Positions 25,512-34,863 of a stretch of 64,000 nt of DNA are shown piece after piece. The DNA is from Kondoa subrosea (Eukaryota). The first letter of the stretch is position 1, and each line of letters begins with the position of its first letter. The position numbers and the translations under genes were made by a program. Under the pieces are notes generated by a model. The model saw only the letters and a program-made list of their open reading frames with translations, was not told the origin of the DNA and did not search any database. The stretch lies in assembly GCA_039545335.1 (NCBI GenBank), contig BCIN01000003.1:1561941-1625940 (forward strand). The letters are read 5' to 3'.

Positions 25512-26383
25512 CTAGATCGGTATCGCTTTCATCTCTTTTTCGTTCCAATCTAAGGTGAGATTTCAACATGAGAGAATTTTGGCAGAAGTGTCATGCTTAC
25601 ATCTTTTCATGTTCTCAGCTCGTAAGGAATGTACTTCGCTGTCGAGATGAAGAAATAGAATGTCCTTGAAGGTGTCTGATAACCAAATCATTCAGATGCT
25701 TCAACTGATATAGAAAGGTCTGACTTACCCATGATTCCCCTCAATTCAGCTGGATCATACTCCTTCTCTCTTGACTGCACTTCGCTGAGGTATTCTTCGT
25801 ATTTACTGCGAAACACGATTAAATTTGCCGGGATCGATGAAATTTGAAGACTAACTCTAAGCCATCATGAATTTGCTTGTGCTCATCTTTGTGCTCATTC
25901 TTGAACTCTGGCATCTTCTTGGCTAGTACTCTGTAAGTTTGGGATTCCGTCCTTAGCGAATATACTTCGCAGAGTCACAAGGTCCCGCTTACGGCTGTAG
26001 CAGAACCGTTAGCTCAATCCCGCTACGAAGAGGAAGCAGGACATACGAAGATATATTTCTCCTCTATCGAATGATGCACACCAAGATGCTGATGCAGACT
26101 CGCAGCAAAACGCAAGAAACTGTTTTTGTTCATTCCGAGCCTTTCGAACGTATCTGCAAACTTGTATATTTCTGTGAAATGCGAGCGGAAACGATCATGA
26201 TACTGAATCCACAAAATTAGTACTGGCAGCATTGTTCGCTTTGAGGAAGGAACGAACTTGGATCATATCGTATTGCAGTCGACCCCAAATCCTTTTCTCC
26301 TGAGGCGTCAGCTTCAATTCTTCCAGTACTGGTTTCTCTACTGCTACAGCGGCAGGTGCGGAACTTTCTATTATGGTAGACAT
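25512..26383 (-). CDS. Hemerythrin HHE cation-binding domain protein, copy 1
   Basis: Ligand pattern YHDRFR / HHSIEEKYIFP / EHKQIHDGL / HLDSE; ends WNEKEMKAIPI*. Includes a 2-nt exon at 25993-25994. Confidence 0.88.
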
Positions 26384-26540
26384 GGTGGCTATTCTAGCTG
26401 GTAGACGACAAGTGGAAGCGCGGAGGAGGTGAGAGAAAGCAATGATTGGGAATAAGAGACACAATAAGGGAATTAAGAGCAGCAGAATGACTGTGAAGTG
26501 ATTGCGGAACAAGCAGAGAAGGGAAGAAACAGAAATGCTT

Positions 26541-26560
26541 AATAATGCAGACGGAGTTAA
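26541..26560 (-). promoter_or_regulatory. Upstream motif TTAACTCCG-N5-ATTATT shared with hemerythrin copy 2 (33807-33826)
   Basis: The same motif lies ~160-200 nt upstream of both paralog ATGs; it contains a CGG/CCG triplet like Zn2Cys6 half-sites. Confidence 0.35.
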
Positions 26561-26744
26561 GTATCGCTGACAGGCAGATCCTCGAGACTTGACAAAGCCA
26601 TCAAAGATCAGTATACTCGCATCTCTGTTCCAGAACACAAGCTGACACAAGCGCGAACTGGCCAATGGAGTTTCGGTGATTTGCGCCAACTTGGCTTGTC
26701 GAGCTACGGCGAGCATCGAGTCCCACTACACAACGCATACCATT

Positions 26745-27792
26745 ATGGCAACTCAGACATCACAAGCTTCGTCCACCAAGCGCAAAGTCGCTGTGTTTGA
26801 CGTGTTCGTAGCATGATTACGTAATCTATCCAACTCCAAGCTGAATTAGGCTGCCAGCTTCGGGACATCTTTTGGCTTAACGAATCTCATAGCCATTGCG
26901 GAAGAGATTTATGGAGCTGAATTGAAGCAAGCAGGAATCTCTGCTACTGCCTTTGTCATGTCATGGTTCCATTGCTCACAGAGGGACTTCTCATGTTCGC
27001 TCTACGCTTCTTGGCTTCTGCTCTGTGTCTCATATACTCTCTAGTCCTGACCATGATGAATCAATACACTGTCAGTAGCTTCGCCTAACATTAATGAATC
27101 TCTTATTTAACAGTCGTACAGCCTATACCTAAAGTCTTCGCATCTATCCTTCGTCGTCAACTTCTAGTAGCATTCGAATCTTTATCACCTACTCCAGAAC
27201 TAAAGCAAGCCGATCTTGATCGCATAACAGCAGGTCTAAAATCACTACCTCCACGAAAACATTTGATCGAATGTATCGCTCATCTAAGGGAGAATGGTTA
27301 TACTTGTATTGCTCTAACTAACGGAGGAAAAGCAAACACGATTGGGTTGTACAAGAAAGCTAATCCAACTGGTGAAGAAGCGGAAAACTTCTTAGGCGAT
27401 TTGGAAAGTCAAGTCATGTCTTGCGATGAAGTTCAATTGGCTAAACCGAATATGGAAATTTATGAGTACTGCAAGAAGAAATTGGATATGTCATCTGAGA
27501 AGTGAGTATACCTGTCATACGAACGCGAGATCGAGAATGTTTAACGAAAGTGATAGTACGCATATGGTCTTCTTCGCGTCCCACTCTTGGGACTTGCTTG
27601 CCGCTAGAAAAGCTGGTTTCAAGACTGCTTGGGCTAGCTATGAAGTTTGTCTTTGTCTCAATCGACCAAAACCAACTATGCTGACCTATTTGAAAGGAAC
27701 ACGATGCTGCTCAAGACATTTTCGGGGAACCTACGTACACTTCCGACGATCTGCTTGATCTAGCCAAGCAGGTTGTAGCAGATTCAGCATAA
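26745..27792 (+). CDS. HAD-superfamily hydrolase, L-2-haloacid dehalogenase-like
   Basis: Motif I FDVFGT, motif II LTNG, motif III AKP, motif IV ASHSWDLLAARKAG. Confidence 0.85.
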
Positions 27793-27995
27793 GATCAAGA
27801 CTCGTGAGCTCGCAAGGACTGATGTAATGGCATTGTACTTTGTAGAATCAGCTCGGAAGTCCGTCATTGAAGAATCTTGTTGATCATAGTGTCAAGCTAA
27901 GCCAATCATGCTCCATCAACTTGACGGCCATAACGAGCAATTTTGAGAATCTGCCCCTTGATCTTGATCCAGCAACTATATACCATAATTCAGCA

Positions 27996-29092
27996 ATGTC
28001 AGACGAGGAGGATTTCATGTCTGATGCCTTTCTCAAAGGACTAGAGTCTAAGGACAAGAGCAATGCAGGGAATTTGAGCTATGCTGAGAAAAGACGGAAA
28101 GCGATCAATAAAGGGCAACAACGCGGATTAGTCTTATCCAGGAAAGAGCGAGAGGCAGCAGCAAGGGAGGAAGGATTACAGCGGAACCTGATTGTCGAAG
28201 CTCGATACAAGGAAGCAGCTGTCCAACCTGTTTATTCTACTCCCTCAAGTATAGCATCGACTTCAACTGCTACACCGATTGTGTCAGGCGATAATAAGGC
28301 TCTGGATATGATGCGCAAGATGGGATTCCAACCTGGTCAAGCTTTAGGCAAACGGAAATCACCTCCTCCTCCTTCATCTACGTCCAATGATAGTCCTGAT
28401 CTACCTTCAGCTACATCTAAACCACGTACGGAACCTATTGCTGTTCAATTACGGACTGGAAGAGGTGGATTAGGTAGAGAAGAAGCAACAAAGAAGTTCC
28501 GCTTAGATCCCAATATGCCTTTACCGCCTACTTTAACGCAAGAGAAATATTTGGCTGGCATAAGAGAATCCTTTGATGATAAACGAGCGGAAGGTGTACT
28601 AAGAGGAGCTAGAAGAACGTGCGAAGAGTTGGATCGAAGGGCTGGGATCCAAAAATCAGTAATGTGGCTTGATCCGGCTGAAGTGGAGAAAGAAGCGAGA
28701 AGGAAATTAGTCGCTAGAAGACTGGGAGAAAGAGTATCGGATGACAGCGACGAGGATGAAGTTGAATATACTGATGTCAAGAAAGTCAAGGCGAACTTGG
28801 AAGATGAGGTTGTTGAAGAAGATGGAACGCCAACAACCAGAGAAGAATGGCTTGATATGGATGTGCATTACTCTCTCATTGGTCTTTGCCTTGAAGCTCA
28901 TATTTAGATAGGCCCGTACAAGATTGGCGAAAACGTTACAGCATATGCGGATGAAACATCAGTGAGTGGCTTCTTCTCGAGCTCGAGCTGATCTGATCAT
29001 TTTTTAGCTTCTGTCACTGGTGTGGCTGTCAATATATAGACGAGGAAGACATGGCTAGTGAATGTCCGGGCGAGAATGAAAATGACCACTGA
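27996..29092 (+). CDS. G-patch domain protein, GPATCH11-like with C-terminal DUF4187-like domain
   Basis: MSDEEDFMSD start; G-patch NKALDMMRKMGFQPGQALGK...GRGGLG; C-terminal FCHWCGCQY...CPGENENDH*. Confidence 0.88.
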
Positions 29093-31700: not shown

Positions 31701-33758
31701 ATGGCTCAATACAGGAATATAGCGCCTCAACCTGACCCATCTACGTCTATCGCTGCTGGTCCTTCTCAGTTTACAAGCAGCAACAAAGGCAAACGCAAAG
31801 AAACGCCGGTGAAATATACAGAAGTAGATGAATTGCTCGACAATCATGCAGATTCACCTAGAACTGCTGCTGGTCAGACGGATGGAGCTCAACAACCTCC
31901 TGCCAAGAAAGCTAGAAAGAAAGCAACCCGAGCTTGTCAGTTTGCCTGCGCATGTTTCATGCATTCAGAGATCCAGGTCGGCTAAAGGTTATTTGGCTCG
32001 CTTGTTCTAGGTCATTCCTGCCAGACTGCACATTTAACTTGTGATGATTGTCAGTCTTCTCATCCATTGGCAGGATGATGGACTGAACGATTACCGCAGC
32101 GAGACCTTGCGCGAGATGCATCAAACGCAATATGGCAGATACATGTCAAGACGGGAAGCGCAAGAAGGCAAAGTACTTGGCAGATTTCGATGATGAAGGT
32201 AAGCTGGCTTGACAAGCTGTGAATCAAGCTGACCTAATCTGCAGTTCTTGGTCGAAGAACGGATTTCAAGACTCCTCCTGTTCCAAAAACAGTTCAAGCA
32301 GGACCTTCTATGCCAATGACTATCCAGCCTCAGCTCCAGCAACAGCCGCAAGCACTGCAGCAGCCAACGCACAATGCAAGCAATCAATTTATGCAACAGC
32401 CCCCGGTGTACCCAACGATGCAACAATTAGCTCAATTCAGCAGCAGCAGTAACAACAACAACAACAGTAATGGAGCGTCTGGATTTGGCAGCGAACAAGC
32501 GAATCTGGAATATGCAATGCTTTCTTCAATGCTCAATGGTCAATCTTCGCCTTCCGATACTAGTGTCCAAGGCTTGACAAATGCTACTGATACCTCTTTC
32601 GACATGTCTGCCTTCGGTCAGCAAAACACTGCAATGCCTTATTTCGGCGCCTTTGGTCAAATGCCTCCAGCCAATGCTGGCTATCATCAACCGGCATTAC
32701 CTAGTCCTCAAGCTTCTTCGTCCACCAATCAAGCTCAGAGTCCTTTCTTACCAACTAATGTCCAAGCATTATCAATGAACGGTCTGACGAATGATCGATC
32801 TGAAACTCTCACTTCGCCTTTTCTTCCATCAACTTCAGCTCAACCTCCTCGACCTGTTATGGCCAGCTCCCATTCCTCATTCGGCAACGGGGCGACAAGT
32901 AGTGCACCGACACCCGCGAGTATCCAACCTCCTCCTCTGTCAGCCAGCGGAGCGATGAAAGCTGAAGACGTTTATCGAAGCATCACTAAACCCTATCCTT
33001 ATGCTCAGAGCTATCACAATCTCATCAGACATTTGAAAGATCGGTCAGTGTTTTTTTTGTGTCATACCCCTTGACTTAGGAGAACCGGGTCTGACAGATT
33101 CGAGAAACTGGACATCCTTCGCATTGTTCGAGCTTTGGCCAAATTTCGACCCAGTCTGATCGCTCTACAAATGCCATTAACGGAAGAAGATGAAATCTTT
33201 GTTGAGAAATGTTTCCAGCGAACATTGATTGTATTTTTTTGGTCATCTACCTGACGTCCGATCACTGAATGTCGCTTGCCTGTTTAGGAATACGAGAAGC
33301 TCATTACCTATTCTGGTACACCTACTGTCGTCTGGCGCCGCACTGGAGAGATCTGCTTGGTCGGAACAGAATTCTCTTTCCTGTGTCAATGGGAACGAAG
33401 CGAGTTGATTGGCAAGAAACGGTACATCTTTGAGATTTTGGATAACAATTCCGTAGTAGAGTATTACGAAGGTCAGTATGGCCGATCACATCAATCCAAT
33501 TGAAGACTACTGACGCATCTGCGAATGACAGCACTGGCAACTCATGCTTTCGAAAACGCAACTCAAACAGTCATGACGACTTGTGTCCTTCTAACACCGG
33601 ACAACAAGCCGGTGCCATGTTCGTTTTGCTTCACTATCAAGAGAGATCGTCAGTTCTTTGTTTTCCATATTATGCCTCTCGATTACTTATTTCCGATGTC
33701 AGTCTTCAATTGCCCTTCTCTCATCGTTGGTCAATTCTTACCACTACTATCGCTATGA
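31701..33758 (+). CDS. ERT1: Zn2Cys6 gluconeogenesis transcription factor with C-terminal PAS domain (ERT1/AcuK)
   Basis: [84 protein letters not shown]. Confidence 0.9.
32440..32470 (+). repeat. Coding (AGC)n/(AAC)n microsatellite (poly-Ser/Asn)
   Basis: cagcagcagcagtaacaacaacaacaacagt inside ERT1. Confidence 0.7.
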
Positions 33759-34006
33759 TGGATCATGAAAAGGTTGTACTCGAGTCGAGGCGCGCAAGTA
33801 TACTTATTAACTCCGGGCGGATTATTCAGCGTTGTACTCAGCGACTTCTGTTCCTTCTGGTCTGCAACCTTGTTTTACAACGCTCATCACAGTCCATCAT
33901 TCTCATACTCTCTAATTCCCCACTGTGTCTCTTCTTTCCGGTTATTGCTTCATCTTTTCTATTACGCGCTGCTACTTGTCCATCACCCAAGTTTTCAATT
34001 CTTGCC

Positions 34007-34863
34007 ATGTCTTCCAGTGTGAATGGTGCCGCTCTAGATGCTGTAGCTCCAGCAGAGCCAGTTCCAAAAGACGCAAAGCTTACCCCGCAGGAGAAAAAGA
34101 TCTGGGGTCGAGTGCAATCCGGGATGATTCAAGTCAGTCTCTCGTAAGCGAACAGTCCTATGAGCTCTGATGATGGACAACAGTACCATGATCGTTTCCG
34201 ATCCCATTTCAATGAAGTCTATGATGAGGCGGACAAGGGGATGAACAGGAACAGCTTCTTGCGATTTGCTATGAGTTTTCATCAACAACTTGGGATGCAC
34301 CATGATATAGAGGAAACGTACTTTTTCGTTTGTTGTTTCCCTCTTTTCTATCATGAAGATTTGAGCTGATGTATTTGAGATAGCCGTAAGCGAACTAATA
34401 TCGCCGATGATTTGAGTTGCTTGATCGAACAAATAGGATGTTGGCAAAGAAGATACCAGAATTTAAGAAAGAACATCAAGAGGAGCACAAAAAGATTCAT
34501 GCAGGCTTGGAGTGAGTTATCTTATCGTGCTCTTCGAAAACATCTCATCTTGTCCGCCAGCAAATACGAAGCGTATCTAAAAGAGGTACAATCGGAGGAG
34601 AAGGAGTATGATTCTGCAGAGTTGCGAGTAATCATGGGTAGGTGTTTCTACTTGAGTTGCTTAATCAGATCAAGCCTGAAGTATCATGTTGTCCAATTGC
34701 AGATAGCTTCAAAAAGATCTTGCTGTTCCATCTTGATCAAGAAATCTTTACTCTGCGGCCAGAGAATATGAAGAAATGTAAGAGCATATTACAAACAGTC
34801 GCAATATGGTGACTTCTGCTTTCAAATTGGAACGAAAAGGAGATGAATGCGATACCGATCTAA
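34007..34863 (+). CDS. Hemerythrin HHE domain protein, copy 2 (inverted paralog of 25512-26383; last 3' splice site mutated)
   Basis: Matching exon structure and motifs: YHDRFRSHF, HHDIEETYFFP, EEHKKIH, HLDQE, WNEKEMNAIPI*. 2-nt exon at 34384-34385. Confidence 0.82.

Follow-up and report, generated by a model that had tools for sequence, protein, structure and literature searches.

A 64,000-nt stretch of the Kondoa subrosea genome (GenBank assembly GCA_039545335.1, contig BCIN01000003.1, positions 1,561,941 to 1,625,940 of the forward strand; hereafter the window, whose own numbering is used throughout) contains two hemerythrin-like paralogs, arranged head to head and 7.6 kb apart. Each consists of 7 exons separated by 6 introns of 48-65 nt with GT..AG ends, one exceptional acceptor apart. 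Upstream of the ATG of both copies, the frame of the ATG continues through a leader that is free of stop codons, that can be aligned between the copies and that lacks an ATG of its own. We consider here whether this leader is coding, and whether it may be translated from a near-cognate codon to give a second, longer isoform.

The assignment to the hemerythrin family was made from exon 2, which matches Pfam PF01814 (hemerythrin HHE) with E=1e-3 (20 bits) in copy 1 and E=1.5e-3 (19.4 bits) in copy 2; these scores fall under the whole-protein cut-off of 25.3 bits because only one exon was submitted at a time. The homologs found by exon 2 carry precomputed PF01814 annotations, and residues H2, H43, H44, E47 and E48 of the exon, which we take to be metal ligands, are invariant across 8 sequences. 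The spliced products contain HHSIEE/HHDIEE, EHK..IH and HLD.E motifs. The closest database relatives, at most 48% identical over exon 2, are uncharacterised basidiomycete proteins from Atractiella, Mixia and Taiwanofungus, of which the Mixia protein is named 'hemerythrin-like domain-containing'. Together with the high density of introns, these relatives point to a basidiomycete. A word-indexed protein search with exon 2 for longer proteins gave no match, and a metagenome scan that used exon 2 of the two paralogs only gave 133 pattern matches, none of which was confirmed.

Counted from a TTG in copy 1 (26464) and a CTG in copy 2 (33923), both in frame with the main ATG, the leaders are 81 and 84 nt long and translate into 27 and 28 residues, as had been quoted in an earlier reading of the locus made from the letters alone (the sequence-only reading). 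The frame is open from these codons to the main ATG in both copies. The net difference in length is 3 nt, and the sole indel within the leader is itself 3 nt. The first 22 leader codons align without a gap, with 45 of 66 nt identical; 9 of these codons are identical, 6 synonymous and 7 replacements, and the six synonymous pairs are exactly those that the sequence-only reading had listed. An ATT followed by G, with a purine at -3, is likewise present at 26443 and 33944, as claimed. No ATG occurs in any frame for 217 nt (copy 1) or 239 nt (copy 2) upstream of the main ATG, although runs of this kind are found in shuffled sequence with P=0.14 and P=0.07, respectively. The description of the extension as 'AUG-less' is therefore accurate over these distances; it leaves unremarked that the same frame, which runs without a stop over 114 codons in one copy and 187 in the other (copies 1 and 2, respectively), contains ATGs further up (26716; 33755/33758; 33617).

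Comparison of the two copies with shuffled sequence by local alignment, under a scoring scheme that tolerates 70% identity, gives z=10.9 for the leader and z=17.6 for 200 nt of upstream sequence; blastn-short at E<=10 did not report the copy 2 leader. The six introns are 46-67% identical in gapped alignment, which is about the level of unrelated sequence, and only 13 of 33 fourfold sites in the coding sequence (CDS) are identical. Given that introns and fourfold sites have diverged this far while the 5' similarity lies far above that of shuffles, the comparison indicates that the duplication is old and that the 5' region is under constraint.

The 21 nucleotide differences in the aligned leader are distributed 6/4/11 over the three codon positions. 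For at least 11 third-position differences, a column shuffle and the hypergeometric test both give P=0.026, the binomial gives 0.056 and a run-preserving shuffle 0.011; for at least 6 synonymous codons P is 0.05-0.12, and for at least 15 of 22 identical residues it is 0.002-0.006. The frame of the ATG (frame 0) scores above the other two: it has 6 synonymous codons vs 2 each in frames 1 and 2, and 15/22 identical residues vs 10/21 and 9/21. Identity by codon position in the leader is.73/.82/.50, compared with.80/.85/.49 over the whole CDS; the first 25 CDS codons, at.64/.72/.44, are less conserved than the leader. Substitutions look codon-phased from the TTG/CTG onward, and by hand count codon phasing is absent from the eight codons between -107 and -84. 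We regard this codon-level signal as suggestive, and the view that the leader behaves like coding sequence in the frame of the ATG as gaining some support from it.

Features of the two paralogs and their surroundings (window numbering; offsets are relative to the main ATG)
Feature	Position	Strand	Remarks
Copy 1 leader	26384..26464	minus	27 in-frame codons, TTG (26464-26462) to ATG
Copy 2 leader	33923..34006	plus	28 in-frame codons, CTG (33923-33925) to ATG
Candidate start ATT, copy 1	26441..26443	minus	at -60; A at -3, G at +4
Candidate start ATT, copy 2	33944..33946	plus	at -63; G at -3, G at +4
Candidate start ATT, copy 1	26486..26488	minus	at -105; purine at -3, inside TCATTCT
Candidate start ATT, copy 2	33899..33901	plus	at -108; purine at -3, inside TCATTCT
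Conserved 5' block, copy 1	26407..26544	minus	-161 to -24, pyrimidine-rich; alignment z=17.6
Conserved 5' block, copy 2	33835..33980	plus	-172 to -27; homologous to 26407-26544
Copy 1 hemerythrin-like gene	25512..26383	minus	182 aa; ATG 26383, stop at 25512
Copy 1 exons	26383-26258, 26202-26047, 25994-25993, 25930-25856, 25805-25729, 25675-25601, 25549-25512	minus	25994-25993 is a 2-nt micro-exon
Copy 2 hemerythrin-like gene	34007..34863	plus	178 aa; ATG 34007, stop at 34863
Copy 2 exons	34007-34132, 34184-34327, 34384-34385, 34437-34511, 34561-34637, 34703-34777, 34826-34863	plus	
Far-upstream in-frame ATG, copy 1	26714..26716	minus	at -333; T at -3; the stop opening the 114-codon frame lies three codons before it
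Far-upstream in-frame ATGATG, copy 2	33755..33760	plus	at -252/-249; overlaps stop of ERT1/acuK-like frame
Last exons of ERT1/acuK-family PAS gene	33288..33758	plus	PF24990, E=5e-20 (33288-33503) and 5e-5 (33504-33758)
HAD-like hydrolase gene (PF00702), then G-patch protein gene	26850-27505, 27846-28907	plus	

The gene models themselves have two unusual features. Both paralogs require a micro-exon of two nucleotides, 'CC' (25993-25994 on the minus strand; 34384-34385 on the plus strand), between two GT..AG introns of 52 and 62 nt in one copy and 56 and 51 nt in the other; it supplies the first two bases of the proline codon in the conserved HHxIEExxxFP motif, and none of the alternative splice patterns tried keeps the frame without it in either paralog. 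The last intron of copy 2 (34778-34825) ends in CAA rather than the usual YAG. The 12 residues of the exon that follows are conserved with copy 1 despite this acceptor, whereas reading through the intron would yield a different C-terminus of 13 residues; the CAA may reflect an unusual acceptor site, a mistake in the assembly or incipient decay. Copy 1 shares a divergent intergenic region of ~700 nt with the HAD-like hydrolase gene, beyond which lies the G-patch protein gene.

Leaders across the hemerythrin-like family

A second metagenome scan, made with a wider family alignment, recovered 20 loci that are 28-47% identical to exon 2. The exon-1 motif F..YN[RS][LM]A[ED].M is present in 15 of them, 13 of which are distinct once L010 (the same as L009) and L020 (the same as L019) are removed; the five loci without the motif were left out of the comparison of leaders. 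In 9 of the 13 distinct loci, the methionine at the boundary between leader and main protein is preceded by an in-frame leader, 40-81 residues long, with an ATG of its own at the start. These leaders are acid-poor and rich in Arg, Ser, Leu and Ile, and in the same nine loci the boundary Met, followed by Ser, Ala, Thr or Glu, opens a polar, acidic N-terminus. A tenth locus, L005, has a leader of only 12 residues. Frame 0 is open for at least 40 codons before the boundary Met in 9 of 13 loci vs 8 of 26 other frames (Fisher P=0.026), a contrast that is modest because these regions are stop-poor in general. Among the related loci, L009 has an ATG-started leader of 40 residues (1231-1350) and its relative L011 has an open frame of 33 codons without an ATG (2222-2320); in L011 the long form may have been lost, or L011 may add another AUG-less example.

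The same arrangement is found among annotated proteins. A protein search with the long form of L016 gave 444 relatives at E<=1e-3, with PF01814 in 120 of 120 among the matches listed. From the 133 proteins gathered up to that search, 104 of which have the exon-1 motif, 26 have at least 95 residues before the motif, corresponding to about 40-100 extra N-terminal residues, and a looser rule (a leader of at least 20 residues) admits 40 of the 104; both counts are among the matches listed. Long leaders that look like presequences occur in Sclerotinia, Stromatinia, Monilinia, Botrytis (including B. cinerea B05.10), Apiospora, Colletotrichum and others, while close relatives are annotated from the boundary Met, giving proteins of 219-223 aa vs 272-311 aa for the long forms. 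The leaders of the homologs average 5.9% acidic and 12.7% basic residues, compared with 24% acidic residues in the stretch after the boundary Met, and the ATG-started leaders of the family span 24-101 aa overall.

Conservation of the leader within the family is visible where sequences are close enough. Residue-by-residue conservation of the leader extends over ~70 positions in the three sequences from Sclerotinia/Stromatinia. The orthologs L016 and L019 differ in the leader at 9/8/16 sites by codon position, with 10 codons changed synonymously and 16 by replacement, and in the region after it at 6/6/19; the other three locus pairs are too diverged for codon phasing to show. Leaders are also found in relatives of basidiomycete type that stand nearer to the window copies, namely P0011 (below), Kwoniella P0134 and locus L003. 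In the last two the leader consists of a hydrophobic segment and, after it, a basic tail rich in Ser, and MAFFT aligns it over the leader of the window copies.

Gene predictors include or drop the leader inconsistently: P0011 has a leader of 24 residues, and the annotation of P0002 and P0010, which share its 90% cluster, begins no earlier than the boundary Met. Annotation of the family shows other irregularities as well. Four relatives (P0040, P0057, P0072 and P0133) are named 'neutrophil cytosol factor 2 protein' in public records, and P0092 is annotated as a fusion with mitochondrial ribosomal protein S10; the likely causes are names copied wrongly from record to record and gene models run together.

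On the strength of these comparisons, we consider the order of leader, boundary Met and HHE domain to be a trait of the family rather than a peculiarity of the window, and the window leader fits this layout since it stands at the same place and in the same frame before the boundary Met. A coding leader and a family with two isoforms are, judged from the relatives, well supported, and the hemerythrin-like family is probably one with two isoforms and a dual location.

Candidate initiation sites and the proposed long isoform

Three near-cognate positions shared by the two copies are candidates for initiation of a longer form: the TTG/CTG at -81/-84, the ATT at -60/-63 and, possibly, the ATT at -105/-108. 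The best context of the three is that of the ATT at -60/-63, where each copy has a purine at -3 together with G at +4. A profile built from the N-termini of homolog leaders (24 non-redundant out of 32 collected) favours none of these positions. An apparent correspondence, noticed by eye, of the TTG/CTG with the initiator Met of the homologs (L-F-P-I, L-L-R-x-S) is not supported by this profile and was discarded. We make no choice among the three candidates.

The sequence-only reading had placed the beginning of frame conservation at the TTG/CTG, just 3' of a frame-breaking indel. Gaps do exist there; they are two 1-nt gaps that compensate each other. The copies in fact stay in the same frame as far upstream as a 4-nt indel at -107/-110, and conservation at the nucleotide level runs on, with frame-breaking indels, to -161/-172, so that the near-cognate codon does not mark the start of conservation in either sense.

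From the layout shared with the family, we propose the following. Both paralogs would keep the two-start arrangement, with an acid-free leader, hydrophobic and then basic, in frame before the main ATG; in the lineage of the window this leader has no ATG of its own. By analogy with documented fungal cases, most ribosomes would pass over the weak site as they scan the 5' leader, which is unstructured and pyrimidine-rich, and would initiate at the strong main ATG (GCCACCATG in copy 1), producing a soluble short form. A minority would start at an in-frame near-cognate codon and thereby add 20-35 residues, which may serve as a targeting or membrane-anchor signal, most likely mitochondrial and otherwise directed to the endoplasmic reticulum (ER) or lipid droplets. 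If a common mechanism holds for both copies, the start should be a non-AUG codon inside the shared leader, as the far-upstream ATGs fail for copy 2 (see below). We tentatively favour, at somewhat under an even chance, the proposal that translation of the window leader begins at a near-cognate codon and yields a minor isoform that is targeted or membrane-anchored; non-AUG initiation is, with about the same reserve, the most economical reading of the window, and an unproven one. Its inferred parts are the transcription of the leader, the non-AUG initiation and the destination of the isoform. A more specific version is less likely than not, namely that an ancestral upstream ATG was replaced by near-cognate initiation in both paralogs, leaving the bulk of the di-iron hemerythrin-like protein cytosolic and a small, tunable fraction anchored on or in an organelle by a hydrophobic and basic N-terminus; the anchor site would then be the mitochondrial outer membrane, the matrix or lipid droplets (compare the oleosin-hemerythrin fusions of plants).

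Crude measures of the predicted extensions bear on their destination. The window leaders contain 0 acidic residues and have a net charge of +2/+3. The mean Kyte-Doolittle value of the most hydrophobic 15-residue stretch is 1.7-1.8 for forms starting at the TTG/CTG and 0.4-0.7 for those starting at the ATT at -60/-63, both inside the range of 40 homolog leaders (-0.85 to 1.97). The forms from the ATT at -105/-108 score 3.1/2.1, above all 40; such a start would add a hydrophobic run of 22 residues, akin in kind to those of L003 and Kwoniella. No PTS2-like pattern was seen in the window leaders by eye against the consensus. The ascomycete leaders look like matrix presequences, and those of basidiomycetes and of the window bear more resemblance to an N-terminal signal anchor whose C-terminal flank is positive. 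The predicted destination of the long form is most likely the mitochondria, with the ER or lipid droplets as possible alternatives.

Several observations weigh against translation of the leader. No stop interrupts any of the three frames in the 66-nt core, and frames of at least 27 codons are open in 46-66% of dinucleotide-preserving shuffles (P 0.46-0.66); since the tract is pyrimidine-rich, its openness over 27 codons carries no weight. The acid-free, Ser/Leu/Ala/Arg-rich character to which the sequence-only reading pointed is real, but it makes a weak argument, as any pyrimidine-rich tract translates in this way and the acid-free, Leu/Ser/Phe/Pro-rich composition follows from the pyrimidine bias. 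The codon-level signal comes from two paralogous sequences only, its P values are modest and the case was picked for its look. A codon-composition frame test, trained on 27 long ORFs (open reading frames) of the window, did not separate the leader from stop-free shuffles (P 0.09-0.45); this test has little power, because it misses the genuine exon 2 too. The claim of a longer isoform from a leaky start gains from the coding-like leader and from the similar leaders of relatives, and loses from the poor context of the TTG/CTG, both of which have a pyrimidine at -3, and from the N-terminus profile, which ranks their positions only 29th and 76th of 581. An upstream ATG is lacking in 3 of the 13 family loci (L011, L013 and L015, the last cut by a contig end), so loss of the long form is also an outcome seen in the family. 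Finally, the ~80 nt upstream of the leader are 71% identical between the copies (68 of 96 aligned positions) vs 63% in the leader (51 of 81), and indels of 1, 2, 1 and 4 nt there put homologous bases into different frames. Some non-coding constraint certainly acts on the region, and it could reach into the leader.

Other explanations for the conserved 5' region

The last of these observations leads to the strongest rival, in which the leader is untranslated, -161 to -24 constitutes the core promoter and 5' untranslated region (5'UTR) of two co-regulated paralogs, the codon pattern arose by chance and the long form was lost with its ATG. The elements it would invoke are a pyrimidine-rich initiator region, an Inr-like TCATTCT and transcription-factor sites such as the candidate AGTATACT palindrome. 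Homology does extend ~80 nt past the leader at equal identity, the whole block upstream of the leader containing indels of 1, 2, 1, 4, 1 and 1 nt, and the conserved motifs are spread over more than one frame. The TCATTCT is conserved at 7 of 7 positions at -107/-110 (26484-26490 on the minus strand; 33897-33903 on the plus strand), exactly where frame concordance begins, and fits the initiator consensus YYANWYY. AGTATACT, a perfect 8-nt palindrome, lies ~205-235 nt upstream of both ATGs (26610-26617 minus; 33797-33804 plus). Both are candidate shared promoter elements, with a function that would be regulatory. The three open frames, the poor context of the TTG/CTG, the lack of coding support from the profile and codon-composition tests and the existence of family members without an upstream ATG also fit an untranslated region. 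This explanation leaves unaccounted for the third-position excess and the lead of frame 0 in identical residues (15/22 vs 10/21 and 9/21), the 3-nt indel, and a leader of family-typical composition in frame right before the boundary Met. A function at the RNA level finds no support either: no stable fold was found in the leader RNA (z 0.10 and 0.27) and no Rfam match to it. We judge a purely non-coding 5' region unlikely on balance, though it is the alternative to be taken most seriously.

Two candidate coding signals in this upstream sequence were examined and rejected. A protein-level match, R-x-A-S-I-L-I, stems from the DNA motif around AGTATACT, which has a second, degenerate copy in copy 1, and was dropped because, in the collinear DNA alignment, the bases concerned differ in frame between the copies. 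A 5' exon lying further up and joined by splicing to the leader at CACAG has no credible donor (by eye) and fails in phase in copy 2, for which it was rejected also because the space upstream belongs to another gene.

A long isoform could alternatively begin at the far-upstream ATG of each copy (26716; 33755/33758) on a longer transcript, in the manner of the ascomycete homologs, with the short form made from a downstream transcription start site. ATG-started leaders are the norm in the family, the resulting extensions of 111 and 84 aa come near its range of 24-101 aa, and in copy 1, where 114 codons of frame 0 are free of stops (P about 0.012), the ATG follows the opening stop by three codons. 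The corresponding 187-codon frame of copy 2 (P about 0.001) was dropped as evidence since it is mostly overlap with an exon of the neighbouring ERT1/acuK-like gene, a transcription-factor gene whose PAS_13 domain is split over two exons. That gene occupies copy 2 beyond about -250 in another frame; its own frame reaches 33758 and stops at 33759-61, just 246 nt before the ATG of copy 2, which leaves little room for a start further up, and the ATGATG overlaps its stop. The gap between the two genes is very small for a 3'UTR plus a promoter. The portion of the frame that might belong to copy 2 (at least 84 codons) is open by chance with P=0.13, and -252 to -118 scores against frame 0 (LL0-LL1 = -8.0, below all true coding chunks). 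Homologous bases from -161 to -108 lie in different frames in the two copies, out-of-frame ATGs intervene at 26622 and 26601 (copy 1) and 33765 (copy 2), and the copy 2 extension would begin with acidic residues. A far-upstream start is accordingly improbable.

Gene conversion, by which promoter and leader would have been homogenised later than the rest of the gene with no need for selection on the leader, is the least probable explanation: the paralogs do lie 7.6 kb apart and head to head, and they resemble each other more closely in the 5' block than in the introns or over the first 25 CDS codons, but a tract at 68-71% identity would itself be old, the differences are spread unevenly over codon positions where conversion predicts an even spread, and the family-wide leader is left unexplained.

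Significance and comparison with known systems

Fungal hemerythrin-like proteins are widespread, with 444 relatives for a single query, and essentially unstudied; a full-text search covering the main body of papers found none on the location, function or alternative starts of fungal hemerythrins. The inconsistent annotation of the leader across the family is a practical problem, and the alternative leaders hint that the family works in two compartments. If the near-cognate reading of the window copies is right, a non-housekeeping family would join the few fungal cases of near-cognate dual targeting, and the contrast between ATG and near-cognate starts within one family would offer a natural system for studying isoform ratios. 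Under the more specific version given above, fungal hemerythrins would constitute a dual-located, O2/NO/iron-responsive family whose split is set by how stringently start codons are chosen.

The nearest comparison is with fungal homologs of the same PF01814 family, among them Botrytis cinerea BCIN_03g06890 (P0073), Sclerotinia P0063 and P0076, Kwoniella P0134, and P0011, none of which is named further than 'hypothetical' or 'hemerythrin-like'. Like the window copies, they have an acid-poor, basic/hydrophobic leader, a boundary Met followed by Ser, Ala or Thr, an acidic linker and the HHE domain. Their leaders start with ATG, whereas the window copies have none for 217/239 nt, and the leader sequences cannot be aligned across orders.

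Plant hemerythrins of fungal origin provide a link to lipid droplets: moss Hr and YAN are tied to oil bodies, and Isoetes has an oleosin-Hr fusion (PMC5908804). The latter resembles our proposal in that a hydrophobic N-terminal module precedes a homologous HHE domain; it is a gene fusion or overlapping frame in plants rather than alternative initiation, and its bearing on the fungal leader is speculative. In Neurospora cpc-1, N-terminal extensions are encoded in a long stop-free 5' region with several conserved near-cognate codons (Ivanov et al. 2017, PMC5487733). The argument made there, as in the window, compares conservation of amino acids with that of nucleotides; cpc-1 differs in having uORFs (upstream ORFs), in being supported by 100 homologs and in that its extension is regulatory rather than targeting.

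Closer in outcome are systems in which near-cognate initiation produces a dual-located protein. The 'cryptic mitochondrial pool' of yeast is reported as one such fungal case (Monteuuis et al. 2019, PMC6582344). The 6-phosphogluconate dehydrogenase (PGD) of Ustilago maydis is another: a peroxisomal isoform arises via a tandem AGG AUU, with a PTS2 encoded in the annotated 5'UTR, and the cryptic targeting signal is conserved across species, giving a dual-located enzyme (Kremp et al. 2020, PMC7214817). There the signal is a PTS2 and initiation was demonstrated by experiment. Cryptococcus ArgRS (AUU) and LeuRS (ACG AUU) have near-cognate-initiated mitochondrial isoforms, and weak AUGs and near-cognate codons have been repeatedly swapped in fungi (Wallace et al. 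2020, PMC7049704). The Cryptococcus cases are founded on ribosome profiling and MitoFates scores, those of the window on sequence comparison; they nevertheless constitute a basidiomycete precedent for an AUU in strong context that gives rise to an N-terminal targeting extension.

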